Assembly (NCBI GenBank): GCA_017530505.1
Contig: JAFXMI010000022.1
Span: 7,283 to 71,282, forward strand
Length of the DNA stretch: 64,000 bases
DNA from: Clostridia bacterium
GTDB lineage: Bacteria; Bacillota; Clostridia; TANB77; CAG-508
Direction: 5' to 3'
Positions 10,114-44,134 of the stretch are shown here, in pieces. Position numbers and translations under genes: made by a program. Below the pieces are notes generated by a model. The model was not told where the DNA came from. It searched no databases and saw only the letters and a program-made list of their open reading frames with translations. How positions within the stretch are numbered: position 1 is the first letter of the stretch; every line of letters begins with the position of its first letter.

Positions 10114-10144
10114 ATTAAACAATTATATAGCTATTAGTATTTTA

Positions 10145-10384
10145 TTAATTTGTATAAAATTTCTTTTGAGAAAGTTTATCTTGAACACTATTTAAAGCTT
10201 CTCCAAATCTTTGGAAATGAACAATTTCTCTTGCTCTTAAAAATCTCAAAACATTTACAACATCTGGATCATCTTTACAAAGATCTATTAGTTTTTCATA
10301 AGTTGCTCTTGCTTTTTGTTCTGCTGCTAAGTCTTCTGTTAAATCTGCAACAGGATCTCCTTTAACTGCAATTGTAGCTGCTGT
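10145..10384 (-). CDS. cotJC: cotJC 3' segment (C-terminal ~79 codons of a manganese-catalase-family spore coat protein), separated from its 5' segment
   Basis: Not in the track because it has no start codon. Minus-strand translation: (T)AATIAVKGDPVADLTEDLAAEQKARATYEKLIDLCKDDPDVVNVLRFLRAREIVHFQRFGEALNSVQDKLSQKKFYTN*. This matches the C-terminal half of CotJC/Mn-catalase. Confidence 0.85.
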   Translation of the reverse strand, partial: TAATIAVKGDPVADLTEDLAAEQKARATYEKLIDLCKDDPDVVNVLRFLRAREIVHFQRFGEALNSVQDKLSQKKFYTN

Positions 10385-10405
10385 TATTTTAAGGATATAT
10401 TTTTA

Positions 10406-12028
10406 TTAACTAGTAATATTTGAAAAAACAAGCTTTAAATTTATATTATGATTACTATCAAATTCAATTTTATCTATCAATTTACACAATAGCTGTTTAT
10501 TTATATTATTTGATTTTAAAAACTCATCAGATAGCTTTTTTATTTGATCATAGCTTATTTTATATCTTGATCTTTCAGTATTGATTCTTTTATCTAAGTC
10601 AATAATTTGCTTTTTACAATTTTCAATCTCATTTTCTTTTTGTTCTTTTATTGATAAAAATGTTTCATTATTAATTATGTTTTCAAGCTTATCATTATAT
10701 ATAGTTTTAATTTGTTCAATTAGTTTATCCATTTTTAAGCTTAATCTTTGTTTATCTTCTTCTAATCTATGACATTCATAATTAATACTCTTTTCAAGAT
10801 TATCCATAACTGCTTTTATATCATTATCATTAAAAATTATTTTTTTACATTCTTTTTCTATTATTGGAATTATAATTTTATATAATTTTTTACTGCTTAT
10901 AGATTTGGTATTGTTACATTTCTTATTTATACCTTTGTTTGCTTCTGAACATATGTAAGAATTGATTTCACATTTTTTGCCACTTTTAGAAAGCTTTTCT
11001 TTATGTTTTAATGTTGAAATACTACCACAGTCTTTGCAATAAATTAAACCTTTAAAAATATCATCATATTTTCTATTTCTATTGTTCTTAAATCTTTCTT
11101 TTAAACTTTGGCATTTATTAAATGTTTCTATGTCAATTATTGGTTCGTGTGTATTTTCAACAATTATTTGATTTTCTTTTTTATTTATAATTCTTTCTTT
11201 TCTCCTAAAGCTTGGTTTTACTGTTTTCGCTCCTACCATTGTTCCAACATATACAGGATTACTTACAATTCTTGTTATTGTAATTTCTCTCCACCCATCA
11301 AGGTTGGATGAAACTCCTTTTATTTTTAAATATTCTCTAGGTGGTATAATATTTCTCTTATTTAAATTTTTTACAATTTCTGTACGAGTATATCCTTTTG
11401 AATACTTTTCAAAAATTTCCTTAATAATAGATGATACATCATTATCAATTATTAACTTATTTTTATTATTGGGACTTTTTTTATAACCATATGGAGCAGT
11501 ATTGCCTTGAAATAATCCTTGCTTTGCTTTTGCAATTTTTACTGCCTTAATCTTTCTTGATGTTTCTTTTGGATATTGTTCACTCATTACAGCTTTAAAA
11601 GGAATAAAATCATCATCTTCTTTGTAATATGTATCAATTGTATCTTCTGTTGCAGTAATAAATCTAACTTTTTTTAATGGAAAATATTCTTGATAATATC
11701 TAAGAACTTCATTTGTTTTACGACCTAGTCTTGTTAAATCTTTTACAACTACCATATTTATCATTTCGTTTTCAATATCACTAATCATTTCTATAAAACC
11801 TGGTCTATTAAAATTTGTTCCTGTATATCCATCATCTGTATAATCTTTGATAATTATAAATCTATTTTGTGGCTCTTTTTTAGAAAGTTCAGCTACATAT
11901 TGTCTTAATATTTTATCTTGATTAGATATACTTTCACTTTCTTTTTTTCCATCATTATCATCTCTTGATAATCTTTTATATAATCCAACATAGAATTGCT
12001 TTTCATATATGTTGTCTAACTTTTGCAA
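10406..12028 (-). CDS. Large serine recombinase (resolvase domain, recombinase domain, zinc ribbon and coiled-coil)
   Basis: N-terminal YVGLYKRLSRDDNDGKKESESISNQ catalytic-serine motif. Cys clusters CKDCGS...C and a long coiled-coil C-terminus. 540 aa, TTG start with RBS AGAGGGAGG. No CGG codons. Confidence 0.9.
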   Translation of the reverse strand: MQKLDNIYEKQFYVGLYKRLSRDDNDGKKESESISNQDKILRQYVAELSKKEPQNRFIIIKDYTDDGYTGTNFNRPGFIEMISDIENEMINMVVVKDLTRLGRKTNEVLRYYQEYFPLKKVRFITATEDTIDTYYKEDDDFIPFKAVMSEQYPKETSRKIKAVKIAKAKQGLFQGNTAPYGYKKSPNNKNKLIIDNDVSSIIKEIFEKYSKGYTRTEIVKNLNKRNIIPPREYLKIKGVSSNLDGWREITITRIVSNPVYVGTMVGAKTVKPSFRRKERIINKKENQIIVENTHEPIIDIETFNKCQSLKERFKNNRNRKYDDIFKGLIYCKDCGSISTLKHKEKLSKSGKKCEINSYICSEANKGINKKCNNTKSISSKKLYKIIIPIIEKECKKIIFNDNDIKAVMDNLEKSINYECHRLEEDKQRLSLKMDKLIEQIKTIYNDKLENIINNETFLSIKEQKENEIENCKKQIIDLDKRINTERSRYKISYDQIKKLSDEFLKSNNINKQLLCKLIDKIEFDSNHNINLKLVFSNITS

Positions 12029-12073: not shown

Positions 12074-12102
12074 ATTATAACAAACAAATCTCGTTTCGTG
12101 AA
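12074..12102 (-). promoter_or_regulatory. Candidate promoter of the recombinase gene
   Basis: Minus strand reads TTCACG, 17 nt, TGtTATAAT (extended -10), about 45 nt upstream of the TTG start. Confidence 0.4.
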
Positions 12103-12125
12103 GACTTTTCTTTTACTTTAAATTG

Positions 12126-12240
12126 TTCAGTTTTTTAGAAACGTAAAGATTTGTTGTGCGAAAAATTGCAAAGCAATTTTTCTGTGCATTTGTCTTATTC
12201 TTATATAATAGTAAATGAATTTTACTATTATATAAGAATG
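12126..12240. repeat. Structured repeat unit 1 (conserved leader, 10-bp hairpin, CTGTGCA, then a ~19-bp AT-rich hairpin)
   Basis: ..acgtaaagatttgttgtgcGAAAAATTGCaaaGCAATTTTTCtgtgca.. then attcttatataatagtaaa/tttactattatataagaat. Confidence 0.7.
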
Positions 12241-12259
12241 TAAAGTTGTAAATGGCGAC

Positions 12260-12373
12260 CTAAATTTTTTCAAGAATTTTTTTAGCACAATATTCTTCAA
12301 ATATTTCAAGCATAATATTTTTTAAATCTTTATCGTTATATTGAATAGTTATATTGTAATTTTCAGTTTTCAA
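12260..12373 (-). CDS. Hypothetical 37-aa protein lying between repeat units 1 and 2
   Basis: TTG start 9 nt after GAAGAGGTG. Translation (M)KTENYNITIQYNDKDLKNIMLEIFEEYCAKKILEKI*. No recognisable family. Confidence 0.3.
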   Translation of the reverse strand: MKTENYNITIQYNDKDLKNIMLEIFEEYCAKKILEKI

Positions 12374-12432: not shown

Positions 12433-12550
12433 TTCAGCTTTATATCTCGAAAAGCGTAAAAATTTGTTGACGCGAAAATTTACTTTTGTAAATTTTCTGT
12501 GCAACTGTTTTAATTAATTATATGAAAGCATTTTCATATAATTAATTAAA
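12433..12550. repeat. Structured repeat unit 2
   Basis: ..agcgtaaaaatttgttgacgcGAAAATTTACttttGTAAATTTTCtgtgca.. then a 20-bp stem ttaattaattatatgaaa/tttcatataattaattaa. Confidence 0.7.
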
Positions 12551-12610
12551 TATTGTTTAATTTAATGTTTATTCATAAAACCCAAAGTGCAAATATTATT
12601 TTTATGCGCG

Positions 12611-12646
12611 CTAAAAAGCAGAAGCCAATTTTCTTGACTTCTGCTA
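12611..12646 (-). terminator. Intrinsic terminator after the RCC1-like gene
   Basis: Minus strand: agcagaag-loop-cttctgct followed by TTTTT. Confidence 0.6.
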
Positions 12647-12774
12647 AAAATATAATATTTGATAGTAATACTATACCACATAAAAATTGCTATTTAAACT
12701 GCAGGATTTTGCAATGTTTTTGCAAAATATTATGTATATTAATTTCAAAAAATCCTAATTTATATACATATTTT

Positions 12775-14119
12775 AATCAGCCATAGTTGACATACTAGGA
12801 TCAATTACAATATTCTTTTCATACGAATTATCAATATTATTATCTATACCGATTTATGGCATGAAACTCTTTTATTGTTTCATCTTCCTTTATTCCTAAT
12901 GCCCCTTTTTCGCTTTTTCCTAATCTATACATTGTATTATTATTATCAACTATTATCGCATACTTCTTTGCAATAGATACTAATTTTACATTTTCTATAT
13001 TTATTTTTTTGCTTGTATAGTAAAATAATCTGTATATGGCTCTGTTTCTGCTAAGTTATCTATTGTAAATCCCATATTATATAATGTTCCATCTTGTTTA
13101 AGTAATAAATTATTTCTATTTTCTATTCCATTTTCAATACTTTTTATATCATTTAAAATAAATGTATTTTTAAAGTATAAATTATTCTTATCATCAATAA
13201 TAAAATATGTGTAGCCTTCATTTGATTTAATATATTCTGTAAATATTATATCTTTTATATTATTTATATATTTATTAAAATCCGTTTTATTTATTTCATT
13301 ACTCTTTTTTGTTTCTATTGAATATACAATTCCATCATTTTTTATTATAAAATCTTCATCTATGTTAGGATAACCTACAATTTTAGAAACATTACTAATT
13401 TCTATTTCAACAGGCTCTCTAGCCCATCCATTAATTTGTTCTGTTATTCCACCACATGAATGTCCAACTACTAGATATTTATCGTTTTCGTTAGTTTTAA
13501 AATAATATCTATCTCCTGTTAAAAATATATCTATAATCCTATAATTATCAATTTTTAATATTTTATTTTCTCCATTATAATATCTTGAATTAGATGCGTA
13601 TCCAAAGTAATATGCTATATTATTATTGCTTAAAGCAACAACTTGAAAATTATTGACATATATTTTTTTAATGTTTTCTACTTCTAATTGAGTTGGAATA
13701 TCAGATAAACCATCTATAGTATTTCTTCCTAATTGTCCATATTCATTACCACCCCAAGAATATATATGTCCATATTTATCTAAGGCGATAACAAAATTAC
13801 TACCTACTCCAATTTGCTCTATATTATTTAATTTTAACTTTGAAAATTTTTCTACTTGCATTCCATATTGATATCCACTTTTACTTGAATAGTGATAATT
13901 TGCACCTGCTACCCAAACACTCCCATCTTCATATAATATAACTGTATATGTATCTCCTGTTTGTAAATCTTTTATATTTTTATAACCATTTATAAATTTT
14001 TCTTCATCAAAAATTTGTTATTTTTCTTGTTCAGTCTCAATATTTATCATATTTTTCATTATAAAAAAAGCACCTATCAATAATATAAATACAAGTATTA
14101 TTATAATACTTTTCTTCAT
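12775..14119 (-). pseudogene. RCC1/beta-propeller-repeat secreted protein, disrupted
   Basis: Signal/TM start at 14119 (RBS AGGAGAGAG). RCC1-like blades such as YSWGGNEYGQLGRN. Lesions: in-frame TAA near 14020, a frame change in an A7 run near 13008-13016, and a CGG +1 site at 12849-12851. Confidence 0.75.
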
Positions 14120-14149: not shown

Positions 14150-14677
14150 TCAATATCTATTAATGAATGTAACACATTTCCTAAAATAGTCTATCAACCG
14201 TTCTGTTTCATAATACCATATAATATTGTTGTCAGTATCAATTACACCAATAAAATAATACTGTGTAATTGTTCCACCTAATTTTAGATTATTATAATAA
14301 TCATATTGATCATAAACTTTATTGTGATAATCATAATTTTTAAAAAATATATACCCTGTAGATACTGGCTCTATGCCTCTACTAAAATAAAATTTGGTAT
14401 TATCCATATCTTCAATTTTTTTCCAGTGTCCATAATTATTTATTTCTTTAATCAATAATTCCTCTTGTTCATCAGAATAATAATATCTATATAATATTGT
14501 TTTTTTACCTGTGAATGCGTACATGTCCTTAATTATTTCTTTTGAATCATATTTGAAAGAACTCCCTAATCCAATTTTTTCTAATTCTAATTCTCTATCA
14601 TCTTGCATCCACCATAATAGAAACATACTTAATAATGTGATACATATAATTCCTAAAAAAACTATTTTTTTTATCAT
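14150..14677 (-). CDS. Hypothetical single-pass membrane protein (Tyr/Asp-rich ectodomain)
   Basis: Probable start at M17 (RBS TAGGAGA). TM segment IVFLGIICITLLSMFLLWW. In-frame CGG at 14198-14200; the +1 frame would end the protein at ...YYETEG*. Confidence 0.5.
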   Translation of the reverse strand: MIKKIVFLGIICITLLSMFLLWWMQDDRELELEKIGLGSSFKYDSKEIIKDMYAFTGKKTILYRYYYSDEQEELLIKEINNYGHWKKIEDMDNTKFYFSRGIEPVSTGYIFFKNYDYHNKVYDQYDYYNNLKLGGTITQYYFIGVIDTDNNIIWYYETERLIDYFRKCVTFINRY

Positions 14678-14690
14678 TAATATTCTCCTA

Positions 14691-15800
14691 TCAAAATTCA
14701 TTGTATTCAAATTCAATATATACATTGTATGGTCTTATTACTCCATATTGCTGTGATACTACGCCACAATTATTTAAAACGCTTCCTAAAAAAGAGTTCT
14801 TATATTCTTTATCTTTTAATCTAGTTTCAGTAAAGTCATATTTGTCCTTTAAAATAATATTTAAATGCCATTTATCTTCTAGCTTTTCACCTGAAATATT
14901 TATAGTTGCATTATGTAATGAATAAAATAAATCTCCATTTTCAAAATTCACTAATAGTTCATCAGGCAAAACCGTATTTTCATTTATTTCTATTTGTAAT
15001 TGATTTTTAGAATATTTATTCAGTAATTCTTTTACTTTGCTTTGTAATAAAACATCTTCTTTTATTTCTTTAATTCTATCTAAATTTAATACATAATAAT
15101 CTTCTTCATTTTTATTATCAGCAATTAATGATTTTTGCAACAATTCTGATGAAAGATAATATTTCTTTATTAATCCACCTGATATTACTACTTCCCAAAC
15201 TACAACTTGCATAGCATAATAAACCTGATAGTAGGCAGGAACTCCTATTTTAGAACTATTAAAAATAAATTTTAATTCTTCAAGTAGATACTTTTCCATT
15301 ATTGCTTCTATCTCTTCATTATTATCAGCTTCTTTCAATTCTTTCTTAAATAAATTTATTTTTTTTGCAAATTTTAATGTTGTCTTATAAAGTCTGTAAG
15401 CTTTATTTAATGTTATAAATGGAGTAACTGTATCTAAACTATTTACTATATCATTATCTAACAGTTTATCCACTGTTTCTTTTATAGATTTAGAAAATGA
15501 AATATTATTAATTTCTTTTTCTATTTGTTTCTTTTCTTTTGATAAATCTCCATATTTAATTTTATTTAAATATTCCAAGGTTAAATATTTTTCAGCCAAA
15601 TCATATTTTTTATTTTGACTTAATCCATATTTATTATATTTTTTTGCAATTTCATTACAAAAATACTTTTCTTTGTCTTTTTCCTTTTTAGGAATTTTAA
15701 TATTTAATAAATTGCATTCTGCATTAAAACAGCCTCTTCCAAAAAGTTTGTATGAGTATGAATATGTTCTATTGCAAAGTTTACATCTTTTCTTTGACAT
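14691..15800 (-). CDS. Hypothetical protein with an N-terminal Cys4 zinc-ribbon-like motif
   Basis: MSKKRCKLCNRTYSYSYKLFGRGCFNAEC... 369 aa from M10 of the track ORF. No family recognised. Confidence 0.55.
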   Translation of the reverse strand: MSKKRCKLCNRTYSYSYKLFGRGCFNAECNLLNIKIPKKEKDKEKYFCNEIAKKYNKYGLSQNKKYDLAEKYLTLEYLNKIKYGDLSKEKKQIEKEINNISFSKSIKETVDKLLDNDIVNSLDTVTPFITLNKAYRLYKTTLKFAKKINLFKKELKEADNNEEIEAIMEKYLLEELKFIFNSSKIGVPAYYQVYYAMQVVVWEVVISGGLIKKYYLSSELLQKSLIADNKNEEDYYVLNLDRIKEIKEDVLLQSKVKELLNKYSKNQLQIEINENTVLPDELLVNFENGDLFYSLHNATINISGEKLEDKWHLNIILKDKYDFTETRLKDKEYKNSFLGSVLNNCGVVSQQYGVIRPYNVYIEFEYNEF

Positions 15801-16099
15801 ACATCTATCACTTCCTTCACATACCATATTATAACATTTTATTACTAAATATAAAACTATTTAAATTATTTTTTTAATTTTGCAAAATAAAAAATTTATA
15901 TACTATTAGTATTATTTAATAATATAATCATAATTCAAGTGGGGCAGGATAAGAAAAGCAGAGGCTTTCCTATAAACATCTAGAAAGTCAAGCTTTCTAA
16001 ACCTCTTGTTAGTCGTTAATTATGCAGATGTTTTACAGATTGCATACACTGCGGTGTATTTTATTTATGAGAATGCTGTTCTTATAGGGATTACAGCTA

Positions 16100-17128
16100 T
16101 TATTCTGTTTTATTTTTATTAATATTTTCTGTTCCTAAAAGCAATTTGTCAAAATCTGAAATAAATTTTTTATCTTGAACTATTTTATATTTTTCGTATT
16201 CATTTTCTGCTTTTTCAATTGCTTGCTTATGAGAAATCTTTCCAGAATTTTGTAATATTTCTTTTTTTCTAAAATTTAATAAATTATCTGTTTCATTTAT
16301 CCAATCTTTCATTGTCATTACTTGATTTTCCTCAGCCATTGATTCTGCATAGTCTAAAAATAAAGTTGTTAAATTATTTAATTTTTTCAGTTCTGTTTCT
16401 GTTAAATAATTTTTTGCGATTGCTACGTCATATTTATATATCATTCCTTCTGGTGCTTCTTTCCAAGTAGTTAATCCCATATTTTCTTTTTCTGAGTTTG
16501 CTCTTTCATAAATTAATTCAGCTGCAGTATGACTTGTTATAGCATAATGTAATTTATTTTGGATGATTTTAAAAAAAGTATTTGCTTCCTCTGATTTTTT
16601 ATCATAGTCAATAGAAGTTACAATAAATAAATCGGTTATTTTTTGATAAGCCATTCTTTCACTTGTACGAATTACTTTAATTCTTTCTAATAATTCATCA
16701 AAATATTGCTGATTTACTTTTCCGCCTTTTAAAAATCTATCATCATCTAGCACAAAACCTTTTATAATATATTCTTTAATTACTTTACTAGCCCATTGTC
16801 TAAATTTTACTGCTTTTTTTGAATTTACTCTATATCCAATAGAAATAATCATATCTAAGTTATAATATTTGGTTTCATATTTTTGATTTCCCATATTCCC
16901 CATATGTTCCATTTTGGAACATGTGCTTTTCTCTTGAAGTTCTTCCTCCAAATATATATTATTAATATGTTTTGTAATTGCTGGTCTTTGTACATCAAAT
17001 AAATTGGCAATGGCTTGTGTATTAAGCCAAACATCTTCATTCTGCAATATTACTTGTATTTTGGTATTTCCATCTTCATCTGTATAAAATATAATATCGT
17101 TTTCATTTCCAATTAATTTATTATCCAT
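16100..17128 (-). CDS. RhuM-family virulence/DNA-binding protein
   Basis: N-terminal IIFYTDEDGNTKIQVILQNEDVWLNTQAIANLFDVQRPAITKHINNIY and the central region are typical of RhuM-family proteins (assignment from memory). Confidence 0.7.
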   Translation of the reverse strand: MDNKLIGNENDIIFYTDEDGNTKIQVILQNEDVWLNTQAIANLFDVQRPAITKHINNIYLEEELQEKSTCSKMEHMGNMGNQKYETKYYNLDMIISIGYRVNSKKAVKFRQWASKVIKEYIIKGFVLDDDRFLKGGKVNQQYFDELLERIKVIRTSERMAYQKITDLFIVTSIDYDKKSEEANTFFKIIQNKLHYAITSHTAAELIYERANSEKENMGLTTWKEAPEGMIYKYDVAIAKNYLTETELKKLNNLTTLFLDYAESMAEENQVMTMKDWINETDNLLNFRKKEILQNSGKISHKQAIEKAENEYEKYKIVQDKKFISDFDKLLLGTENINKNKTE

Positions 17129-17255: not shown

Positions 17256-18011
17256 TCATAAATTTGCATATAAGCTTTCTAAAACTTCTTTAGAATATTG
17301 TCTTCCTTGATAATTATGAAACGCATTATTATTTTTATAATTTTTATTTTTATATTTTAATACATTAACATTTTCTACTATATCATATTGAACTTTTTGA
17401 TTATATCTATATAGAACGTTTTTACAAAAGGTATCATCATTTTTGTGTATAGGTTTAATTTTTCTATATAGAATTTCTTTATGATTATTTTTATAAATAT
17501 ATTCATTTGTTGTATAACCTTTTCTTCTTAGATTATTTACTATTCTTGATATTTGATTTTTAGCTACGCCCAATATATCTTTTAAATTTTCGTTATTCAA
17601 AGTACAAGTTTTACGTAGATTACTATAGTATAATGCAATAGAAAGTATAAATTTTTCTTTGTCATTTAAATTATTATCTGATAATACATTTATAGGTATA
17701 AATAACCCTTTAAATATTCCTTTACATTCATTTATAACAACCAATGGAAACAATTGTCTTTCTTGTATATTATTTTTAGGTTTAATATGTATATATCTTT
17801 TATCTTGTAGAGTATTAATTATACTAGAAATTCTTTTTGTTGATCTATTTAGTAAATTTTCCAAATACTTATTTCTTATACAACAATAGCCTTTATTATT
17901 ACTAAAAAATATAATTAATGAATATATTATTTTTTCTTTATCTCTTAATTTTTTATCTGTTAAAATTTGATAGGGTATCCATAATCCATCTATTTTAAAT
18001 TTGTTTTTCAT
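17256..18011 (-). CDS. Hypothetical protein with two tandem winged-HTH-like repeats
   Basis: Internal duplication: DGLWIPYQILTDKKLRDKEKIIYSLIIFFSN...ISSIINTLQDKRYI versus KGLFIPINVLSDNNLNDKEKFILSIALYYSN...ISRIVNNLRRKGYT. Confidence 0.55.
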   Translation of the reverse strand: MKNKFKIDGLWIPYQILTDKKLRDKEKIIYSLIIFFSNNKGYCCIRNKYLENLLNRSTKRISSIINTLQDKRYIHIKPKNNIQERQLFPLVVINECKGIFKGLFIPINVLSDNNLNDKEKFILSIALYYSNLRKTCTLNNENLKDILGVAKNQISRIVNNLRRKGYTTNEYIYKNNHKEILYRKIKPIHKNDDTFCKNVLYRYNQKVQYDIVENVNVLKYKNKNYKNNNAFHNYQGRQYSKEVLESLYANL

Positions 18012-18191
18012 TGTATTTCTCCTTTGTTTTAAATTTAAAATAGGTTTTATGAATAAAATCTTTGATTATTTAATATGGTGAATGGTTGTCTATTCTAAGC
18101 TTTCATTATTCGCCTTAATATTACAGCATCATATGATGTTGTAATGCTAAGGGTACTTTTTTAATATCTCCTTTGTATTACAACATCAGTT

Positions 18192-18541
18192 GCTGCTGTC
18201 CAAGGGAAACCCGCTGCTGCTTGCGGATATACTCCAAGACCATGATCTGTATAATATGGTTCCATACCTGCTTTTTTTATTTCTTCAATTGAAATTCCTT
18301 CAGTTAATTGATTAACAATACTTCCAACCATTTCCAAATGAGCTAATTCTTCAGTTCCAACATCATTTAGTATTGCTTTTGATTTGTTATCTGGCATTCC
18401 AAATCTTTGTGATAAATATCTTAGTGAAGCTCCAAGTTCTCCATCCGGTCCACCATATTGTGAAATAATAACTTTTGCCATCTCTGGATTACGATTCTTT
18501 ATTTTAACAGGATATTGCATTGTTCTATTATAAATCCACAT
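18192..18541 (-). CDS. cotJC: cotJC 5' segment (N-terminal ~116 codons), running into element-derived sequence and a stop at 18161
   Basis: MWIYNRTMQYPVKIKNRNPEMAKVIISQYGGPDGELGASLRYLSQRF...GTEELAHLEM...GFPWTAAT matches the CotJC/Mn-catalase N-terminal half. After the junction the ORF reads DVVIQRRY*. Confidence 0.85.
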
Positions 18542-18543
18542 AA

Positions 18544-18813
18544 CTACATACCTCCTCTTTCCCATGGCCAAGGATTATTAACCCAATTATCCCAACTATT
18601 TACTGGCGTATAAATTGATAAAGGACCATATTGTGCTTGATACATGTTTTTCAAGTTTTCAAGTTGCACACTATACTGACTATGTGCATTTAATGCTCTC
18701 ATATCACATGGATGAGTATCTAAATATAAAGCAAGATCATTTACCATAAACATTAAAGCTCTTATCTGTTCTAACATTTCATTACAATTCATATTATCTT
18801 GGTTCATAAGCAC
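18544..18813 (-). CDS. cotJB: Spore coat protein CotJB
   Basis: LEQIRALMFMVNDLALYLDTHPCDMRAL...WPWE is typical of CotJB. Its stop overlaps the cotJC start. Confidence 0.85.
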   Translation of the reverse strand: MLMNQDNMNCNEMLEQIRALMFMVNDLALYLDTHPCDMRALNAHSQYSVQLENLKNMYQAQYGPLSIYTPVNSWDNWVNNPWPWERGGM

Positions 18814-19009
18814 AACTCCTTTCTTTATAATCCTTTAAAAACCTTATCGCTTCCATAGACTCTAGTGGTCTATATTGATTATATAGTTCTGGAAACGCTG
18901 TTCCTTTTTCTAAACTTTCTTCCGGAAAATATATTTTCTTCATTACTTGAATTGGAACATAAGCATGCCCAAACATAGGATTAGAAGAAAAAAATTTATT
19001 ATCTTGCAT
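18794..19009 (-). CDS. cotJA: Spore coat-associated protein CotJA
   Basis: GHAYVPIQVMKKIYFPEESLEKGTAFPELY is typical of CotJA. Start at M12 with RBS AAGGAGGAA. Confidence 0.8.
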   Translation of the reverse strand: MQDNKFFSSNPMFGHAYVPIQVMKKIYFPEESLEKGTAFPELYNQYRPLESMEAIRFLKDYKERSCAYEPR

Positions 19010-19148
19010 AATTAATTCCTCCTTAATAAAAATAATATGCAATAATAATAAATTATGTTAACATCTTTCTTATAAAATTAATGAAATACATAGTTCAAAA
19101 ATCTTTTTCTATAATATAAACTCTAATATTGTAAAAAAGCTTTTAATC

Positions 19149-19544
19149 TTATAAATGAAATTGATATGGAAGGAGCTCTTCCATTGTGTATTCTTCAACT
19201 TTATTATCAAAAGCAGTATAAATCTTGAAGTCTTTTTCTACAAACTGACTCATAAATTGTCTACAATAACCACAAGGTAAACACTTTTCTAAATTACTTG
19301 AATCTTTTTTACCTCCTATAACAAGTATACTATCAAATTCCTTCTCTCCTTCTGAAATTGCTTTTGAGAAAGCAACTCTTTCTCCACAAATTGATTGTAT
19401 CCCATCATTTTCAATATTACAACCAGAATATTTTTTGCCATTTTTACAATTTAAGACAACACCAATACTATATCTAGAACATTCACATCTTGAATTACTT
19501 CTAGCTAATTTTGCTATAATTAAATCTTCTTTTATATCTATCAT
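19149..19544 (-). CDS. cdd: Cytidine deaminase
   Basis: Zinc-ligand motifs CGERVAF and CLPCGYCRQF; 131 aa. Confidence 0.85.
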   Translation of the reverse strand: MIDIKEDLIIAKLARSNSRCECSRYSIGVVLNCKNGKKYSGCNIENDGIQSICGERVAFSKAISEGEKEFDSILVIGGKKDSSNLEKCLPCGYCRQFMSQFVEKDFKIYTAFDNKVEEYTMEELLPYQFHL

Positions 19545-43429: not shown

Positions 43430-44134
43430 TTATTTAACTATTGTTCCAATACGCTCTCCTTTAACAGCTTTTACAATGTTTTCAGGTTCACTAATTGCAA
43501 AAACTAAAAGTGGCATATGATTATCTCTACAAAGAGATGTAGCAGTAGAATCCATTACTTTTAAATCTTTATTTAATATATCTATATAACTAATTTCATT
43601 ATATTTTTCAGCAGAACTATCTAATTTAGGATCAGCTGAATACACACCATCAATAGTTTTTGCAAGAAGAATAACTTCTGATTCTGTTTCAATTGCTCTT
43701 AAAGCAGCTGCTGTATCCGTTGAAAAATAAGGGTGCCCTGTACCACAAGCAAATATTACAACTCTTCCTCTTTGTAAATGTTTTATTGCTTTTCTTTTTA
43801 TATATGGTTCAGCAATCTCTCTCATTTCTATTGCGGTTTGTACTCTAGTTTGAATACCTTTAGTTTCTAAGGTATCTTGAAGAGCTAAAGCATTCATTGT
43901 AGTAGCAAGCATTCCCATATAATCTGCTGCAGCTCTATCCATCATTTTTCCATTTCTAGGACCTCTCCAAAAATTTCCTCCACCTACAACTATAGATACT
44001 TCAACACCCATTTCTACAATTTCTTTTACTTTGTCACAAATACTATTAATAATATCAGGATTAATTCCATGAATATCCTCTCCAGCCAAAGCTTCTCCGC
44101 TTAATTTTAATAAAACTCTCTTATATGCTAACAT
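43430..44134 (-). CDS. pyrH: UMP kinase
   Basis: [13 protein letters not shown] and [10 protein letters not shown] motifs. Confidence 0.92.

Follow-up and report, generated by a model that had tools for sequence, protein, structure and literature searches.

The most probable reading of the window, by which we mean the whole 64,000-nucleotide stretch of DNA analyzed here, is that two identical 8-mers, GCTGCTGT at 10377-10384 and 18192-18199 with a spacing of 7815 bp, are parts of the attL and attR sites of a 7.8-kb non-phage large serine recombinase (LSR) element inserted in the spore-coat gene cotJC, and that cleavage takes place at an AC dinucleotide beside the 8-mer.

An 8-bp repeat at the junctions of a divided cotJC

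On the plus strand, 10371-10390 is attgtaGCTGCTGTtatttt and 18187-18205 is cagttGCTGCTGTccaagg; on the minus (coding) strand both 8-mers are read as ACA GCA GC in an identical codon phase; joining the two halves of cotJC through the 8-mer produces an open frame of 193 codons. The original prediction, that identical 8-mers in one codon phase mark both junctions and that recombination at them restores the reading frame, was thus borne out, and the joint that it implied was found in four uninterrupted contigs of the same species (L095, L097, L098, and L101), which read ..ACAGCAGC-T-ACAATT... Across both strands of the window the 8-mer occurs three times in total, the third copy lying at 43707. 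The chance of eight consecutive matches beside a shared junction was P ~1e-4 at the base composition of the window, and the identity is therefore more than chance. An inner half-site motif, ACAGCA(G/T)CA, was found in most of eight attL/attR pairs of the element family, and the 8-mer is repeated at both junctions because the element-side and gene-side arms carry this same motif; the same recombinase domain would bind both arms, which would account for what they have in common.

The interrupted gene belongs to a cotJA-cotJB-cotJC operon on the minus strand, a sporulation locus that was identified by Pfam. It comprises cotJA (18797..19042; CotJA, 1.8e-11), cotJB (18547..18813; CotJB, 3.2e-25), a 5' segment of cotJC at 18191..18541 that covers codons 1 to ~117 and ends ..GFPWTAA (Mn_catalase positions 1-131, 6.9e-30), and, on the far side of the 7.8-kb element, a 3' segment at 10145..10373 with the last ~76 codons, ..IAVKGDPVADL..FYTN and a stop codon (Mn_catalase positions 129-197, 1.4e-18). 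Relatives possess an uninterrupted cotJC of 191-193 aa, and most genomes of the same genus carry the gene without interruption at a protein identity of 75-84%. Precise joining of the halves in the window gives an ORF of 193 aa, matched by the intact 193-aa gene of the same species in L097. In B. subtilis, which is a different organism from the one studied here, cotJ is expressed in the mother cell under sigma-E.

The genes of the element lie on the minus strand. An intact LSR of 540 aa at 10406..12028 displayed Pfam matches to Resolvase (PF00239, 4.6e-19, residues 16-171), Recombinase (PF07508, 8.8e-21), and Zn_ribbon_recom (PF13408, 4.6e-7), with both C-terminal matches over their cut-offs, along with a PHROG integrase match (4e-86) and a YKRLSRDD motif that holds the serine at position 21, YKRLS(21)RDD. 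Its stop codon is 11 nt from the P arm of attL, and the 8-mers sit within the attL and attR of an element that encodes an intact recombinase, in agreement with the prediction that the junctions are att sites. The remaining cargo consists of an RCC1-repeat protein fragment (13004..13861; Pfam RCC1, 1e-8), two overlapping ORFs of 378 aa and 191 aa (14153..15827) with no match in Pfam, PHROGs, or NCBIfam, a RhuM-family protein of 342 aa (16103..17128; Virulence_RhuM, 1.7e-101), and an HTH_36/replication-initiator-like protein of 251 aa (17259..18011; Pfam HTH_36, 1.5e-16; PHROG replication initiation, 1e-15). Phage structural, lysis, and packaging families were absent from the element in Pfam and PHROGs, and its matches, limited to integrase, replication-initiator-like, RhuM, and RCC1 families, do not amount to the content of a prophage.

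Directly upstream of the recombinase lies a conserved 37-codon ORF (12260..12373, minus strand; LKTENYNITIQYNDKDLKNIMLEIFEEYCAKKILEKI) with its own ribosome-binding site, AGAGGTG, which recurs in ~20 related elements at 59-100% aa identity. Its variable columns number 19, 14, and 27 by codon position; the ORF is conserved at the protein level, and it had zero family matches in Pfam, PHROGs, and NCBIfam; we regard its product as a candidate directionality factor or regulator. Between this ORF and the recombinase, the window holds ~130 extra bases (12083-12260) that are absent from the related elements L071, L076, and L047. A further block at ~12540-12750 (minus strand) is kept in all related elements whatever the neighbouring cargo. 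It contains an inverted repeat, TTTTGCAAAAAC.TTGCAAAA, a promoter-like site, TTTAAA-17-TGnTATAGT, and then a hairpin, AGCAGAAGTC..GGCTTCTGCT, with five T after it; the block could be the operator and a short transcript or attenuator of the recombination module. Elsewhere in the 1.26-Mb genome to which the window belongs (G000), at least seven further serine-recombinase matches were observed (contigs C34, C10, C29, C19, and C44), and other genes may be interrupted there too.

Position of the strand exchange

The central dinucleotide was placed by half-site alignment, an approach that has been experimentally validated (PMC12286644), using eight attL/attR pairs (the window, L047, L044 of G088, L071, L087, L076, L081, and L090) written on the cotJC coding strand. 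In all eight pairs, the N-side junction consists of a 15-nt gene arm beginning CC(A/T)T, two bases, and a 19-nt element arm ending AAGG, and the C-side junction is the mirror image of this layout. The reconstructed attP accordingly measures 19+2+19 and attB 15+2+15, the former being the longer imperfect inverted repeat and the latter the shorter one, of which empty examples were seen. The CCTT/AAGG outer motif is located 4 bp farther out in the element arms of attP than in the gene arms, a hallmark of LSRs that arises from the shifted second DNA-binding domain. In the window, attR (18170..18205, minus strand) is made up of the B arm CCTTGGACAGCAGCA (18191-18205), the centre AC (18189-18190), and the P' arm TGATGTTGTAATACAAAGG (18170-18188), and attL (10359..10394, minus strand) of the P arm CCTTAAAATAACAGCAGCT (10376-10394), the centre AC (10374-10375), and the B' arm AATTGCAGTTAAAGG (10359-10373). 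In each arm the 8-mer takes up the inner portion: its right copy (18192..18199) lies in the B arm of attR, on the gene side, and its left copy (10377..10384) in the P arm of attL, on the element side. The repeat, which the original prediction took for the crossover core, is thus part of attL and attR, but the eight-pair alignment revealed that it is not a symmetric core.

A blind dyad scan of the attB and attP of the window returned as its top centre the AC that, on the coding strand, follows the 8-mer after a single base (GT on the plus strand, at 10374-75 and 18189-90), with 13/22 and 15/22 matches, respectively. The central dinucleotide was the same in attL and attR in every one of the eight pairs (AC, GT, TA in five pairs, and TG), and it was the sole position identical in all of them. 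Exchange at a central dinucleotide, as predicted, holds for the family; in the window, this dinucleotide would most likely be the AC just past the 8-mer and not a pair of bases inside it.

Relatives of the element allowed this position to be mapped independently of the window. The recombinase of L047 is 89% identical, and its attP matches that of the window at ~37/41 positions; it is inserted in reversed orientation in a cotJC allele centred on GT (Val), the complement of AC, and element homology between the two insertions starts and stops exactly at AC. In the inverted insertions L047 and L087, both hybrid sites measure 36 bp (36+36), which places the exchange at the dyad centre since a cut off-centre by d would give sites of 36-2d and 36+2d. 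In the sister species represented by L071, whose recombinase is 87% identical and whose inner arms differ at 7/9 positions, five empty-site contigs equal the attR gene arm, TG, and the attL gene arm, and the overlap of the flanks is TGT alone; on these sequences, the exchange in that species maps to TG(T) at the centre. The orientation of insertion tracks AC and GT, as seen in the window versus L047, and the palindromic TA occurs in both orientations. Together, these comparisons showed that the element family exchanges at the central dinucleotide. Family-wide exchange at offsets 3-4, 4-5, or 6-7 of the 8-mer was rejected, as L047 or L071 would then show mismatches. A mismatched overlap at offsets 8-9 would, after replication, give the base swap observed in the window's species (described below), but a cut there was likewise discarded: it predicts hybrids of 34/38 bp and not 36/36 bp in the inverted insertions.

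By this scheme, the recombinase would cut at the dyad-centre AC one base past the 8-mer, joining the cotJC halves in frame and freeing a circle that carries attP; the corresponding sites would be attB ..TTGGACAGCAGCA-AC-AATTGCAG and attP ..AATAACAGCAGCT-AC-TGATGTTG. At offset 8, the base between the 8-mer and AC, the scheme predicts A in attB (..GCAGCA-AC-AATTG) and T in attP (..GCAGCT-AC-TGATG), and exchange inside the 8-mer predicts the opposite.

Contigs from the window's own species, retrieved by exact look-up of the neighbouring cytidine deaminase, conflict with the expectation for AC. Empty-site contigs with an intact 193-aa cotJC came from two lineages (L095/L097 and L098/L101), their flanks being 99.5-99.8% identical to the window, against 99.97-100% for occupied contigs. 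All four read ..ACAGCAGC-T-AC-AATTG, whereas in the occupied strain offset 8 is A on the attR side (18191) and T on the attL side (10376). In the empty alleles, offset 8 thus goes with the right-hand side, which fits exchange inside the 8-mer and not at AC. Apart from offset 8, the occupied and empty cotJC halves differ only at 10120 and, in one empty lineage, at 18206. To explain these alleles, exchange at AC would need a synonymous GCT/GCA polymorphism at offset 8 together with an attP arm ending in T; alternatively, the empty alleles would derive from deletion through the 8-bp repeat. Among relatives in the genus, about half carry A and half T at this position, and site-1 variants ending in T (site 1 being the attP-type site used in the window) were seen in 2 of ~6 related ones. 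The empty contigs were ruled out as excision products of the occupied strain, given the 7-12 SNPs per 2-5 kb that separate them from the window. Along the flank, SNPs between the occupied strain and the four empty contigs (window 18191-19173; L095, L097, L098, and L101) numbered 5 in 1 kb by the junction versus 3 in 3.7 kb farther out, roughly a fivefold difference in density; homologous exchange may have brought in the element along with flanking DNA.

We consider it unlikely, though by no means negligible, that strands are exchanged at a dinucleotide inside ACAGCAGC, such as its 3'-terminal GC, and not at AC. With such a cut, the T at offset 8 in four empty contigs of two lineages is the exact joint with zero extra mutation, the reconstructed attP ends ..GCAGCA-AC like that of the closest relative L047 (..GCAACA-AC), and the dyads of attB and attP each score one match better; the GC at offsets 6-7 is moreover the second-best dyad centre, with 10/22 in both sites. 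Against this, no position of the 8-mer is identical between attL and attR across the pairs, L071 and L047 between them exclude all candidates, the 36+36-bp hybrids of L047 and L087 are impossible with an off-centre cut, and the empty sites of the sister species put the cut at the centre. SprA of SPbeta was observed to cleave in vitro at the centre of the inverted repeat (PMC5499854), and by this established mechanism an LSR with a matched central AC is not expected to cut elsewhere (PMC5499854). Weighting the family-level mapping somewhat higher, we favour exchange at AC with moderate confidence. As judged from the sequences, the exchange in the copy carried by the window is bracketed to 11 bp, ACAGCAGC-N-AC, and the frame is restored under either exchange point because GCT and GCA both encode Ala. 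If the cut is at AC, as we favour, this case illustrates that the crossover point can lie outside a long stretch of identity shared by both junctions.

Proposed excision and the distribution of elements in cotJC

If the element behaves as skin, SPbeta, gin, and yin do (PMC4191935, PMC5595907, PMC10747680), cotJC would be made whole when the element is excised during sporulation in the mother cell, and the product of the 37-aa ORF would possibly act as the directionality factor for excision. A fairly improbable alternative is that this is a plain integrative element which prefers the cotJC sequence and inactivates the gene, with no excision linked to sporulation; intact alleles would then represent never-occupied strains or rare deletions, an account compatible with either exchange point. 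Several observations are in line with such an element. Exact look-ups of the recombinase and the HTH protein of the window gave occupied contigs only, with no excised circle or excision joint, and pattern scans of genome contigs, viral contigs, and 75 genus genomes yielded no intact attP of the window type. No recognizable sporulation promoter emerged: by-eye inspection of the conserved block upstream of the 37-aa ORF found no conserved sigma-E or sigma-K consensus, and a sigma-70 plus terminator scan gave 30 sites versus 27.7 expected from shuffles, which is no enrichment. Empty-site strains coexist within the species, and B. subtilis cotJ mutants still form spores. Other features argue against a plain element. 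No part of the system is visibly broken, be it the recombinase, either att site, or either half of cotJC, and the halves are nearly identical to those of empty strains, as described above for offset 8, 10120, and 18206; the family is old, with recombinases 74-90% identical in many host species, and the cotJC pieces are open in all translated loci (the window, L044, L047, and L081). At least four other LSR elements, furthermore, hit the same mother-cell gene, following the pattern of skin, SPbeta, and gin (PMC5595907, PMC4191935).

More than 90 homologues of the recombinase, at 74-90% identity, were found in gut metagenomes and in metagenome-assembled genomes bearing the label uncultured Clostridium or Clostridia, with humans, rabbits, and mice as the sources, and nearly all of the loci inspected occupy this same position in cotJC. 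In one sub-lineage, to which the element in the window belongs, each element carries two complete attP-type sites, site 1 and then site 2, with their centres 57 bp apart. Site 2 of the window (18113..18152) is a near-perfect palindrome, CCTTAGCATTACAACATCA-TA-TGATGCTGTAATATTAAGG, centred 57 bp inward from attR. Dual sites downstream of the recombinase stop are also present in L048, L049, L081, L044, L108, L114, L121, and L126, and single-site relatives (L071, L076, L087, L110, and others) have only the homologue of site 2, directly after the recombinase stop codon. The elements of the window and L047 integrated via site 1 (centred on AC in the window), and L044, L048, L049, L081, L108, and others via site 2 (TA, or CA in L049) with site 1 kept intact. 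The tandem sites look like a duplicated attP with different central dinucleotides. This dinucleotide supplies bases 1 and 2 of a variable codon in cotJC, which encodes Thr, Val, Tyr, or Cys when occupied and Ser, Val, or Ala in 16 unoccupied alleles of the genus. A dual attP would allow entry into Tyr TA alleles by site 2 and into Thr AC or Val GT alleles by site 1, in either orientation, and an adaptive role for this arrangement is a conjecture.

Two loci depart from the usual picture. In L113 (CANQXD010000034.1), site 1 and a complete, palindromic site 2 come just after the recombinase and lead into the sequence with which the far end of the element usually starts; an unintegrated circle, a tandem arrangement of copies, or insertion at some other place would give such a layout. 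Genome G004 has an intact cotJC (the contigs concerned being C83/L026 and C5/L045) together with a 1.6-kb contig bearing a recombinase fragment of 88% identity, and the element may be present in part of the population only or elsewhere in the genome.

The gene cotJC is an insertion hot spot in these uncultured low-GC gut Clostridia. Of 75 genus genomes, between about one quarter and one third hold kilobase insertions in it (genomes G008, G011, G013, G020, G026, G027, G033, G061, G062, G067, G069, G086, G088, and G094-G097; loci L015-L023, L044, L072, L081, and L086), at no fewer than four positions, that is, near codons 62-67, 97-108, 117, and 133-138, and possibly 77-93. Each insertion inspected for genes encodes its own serine recombinase, 23-32% identical to that of the window. 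The cotJC of G088 houses at least two elements, probably three, and contig L081 carries four in one cotJC, the pieces of which still form one open frame. In G072, G009, G003, G014, G017, G090, and G091, cotJC lies in adjacent pieces in different frames without an insertion, and these splits could be frameshifts. We propose only tentatively that cotJC serves as a multi-site landing pad for unrelated LSRs, with at least 4-5 positions and up to four occupied at once, and that the tandem attP widens the range of alleles that can be entered.

Comparison with known sporulation elements

Interruption of cotJC is already on record, and the element belongs to the class of skin, SPbeta, and gin, in which the att sites of a serine-recombinase element in a sporulation gene are an ordinary feature. 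What the window adds is a compact and delimited set of recombinase, attP, and attB (7.8 kb, and 3.4 kb in relatives) from uncultured human-gut Clostridia, whose natural variants, with four central dinucleotides and both orientations, are of practical interest for serine-integrase tools. Repeated and multiple interruption of cotJC in this clade would also mean that sporulation genes of gut anaerobes exist as "genes in pieces" far more often than one would expect from the small number of cultured cases. The gene was reported as split by a skin-like element in Laceyella sacchari (bioRxiv 10.1101/2022.02.25.481979), and another preprint (bioRxiv 10.1101/2021.11.22.469490) names it among integration targets with reference to Abe et al. 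2013. The target gene is the same, but the hosts are Bacilli and not gut Clostridia, and in the accessible passages cotJC is mentioned with neither att sites nor a recombinase family nor a position of the insertion.

The best-known member of the class is skin, which resides in sigK of B. subtilis and Clostridioides difficile and depends on the recombinase SpoIVCA and the directionality factors Skr and CD1234. In both cases a sporulation gene of the mother cell is interrupted by an LSR element whose recombinase gene adjoins one att site, and the frame is regained by precise excision, which is predicted for the element described here; the latter differs in its target, cotJC instead of sigK, and in its 7.8-kb size without phage genes, and its excision timing and directionality factor are putative. 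SPbeta, a prophage in spsM recombined by SprA and SprB (PMC5499854, PMC4191935), likewise has LSR att sites with inverted-repeat arms and a crossover inside a codon; its cleavage, as is probable here, takes place at a central dinucleotide within a longer stretch that is conserved among all four att sites. That stretch is a 16-bp identity symmetric about AA, whereas the identity in the window is one-sided and broken by one mismatch, and SPbeta is an active phage, unlike the element here. Outside this group, the Anabaena fdxN element also employs a serine recombinase, XisF, to restore a gene, there in a terminally differentiated cell. The LSR of the window matched XisF in NCBIfam at 1.2e-22, far under the cut-off, and is not an equivalog, and the phylum and the cell type are different.

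The content of the element resembles that of gin and not that of skin. Located in gerE of Bacillus cereus ATCC 10987 and recombined by GirC and GirX (PMC5595907), gin is likewise a non-prophage element with a serine recombinase and a short overlap at both gene segments (9 bp in gin). It needs a small accessory factor, GirX, and in the window a small ORF adjoins the recombinase; gin is larger, with 28.6 kb and three recombinases, compared with one recombinase and the candidate 37-aa ORF in the element that divides cotJC.
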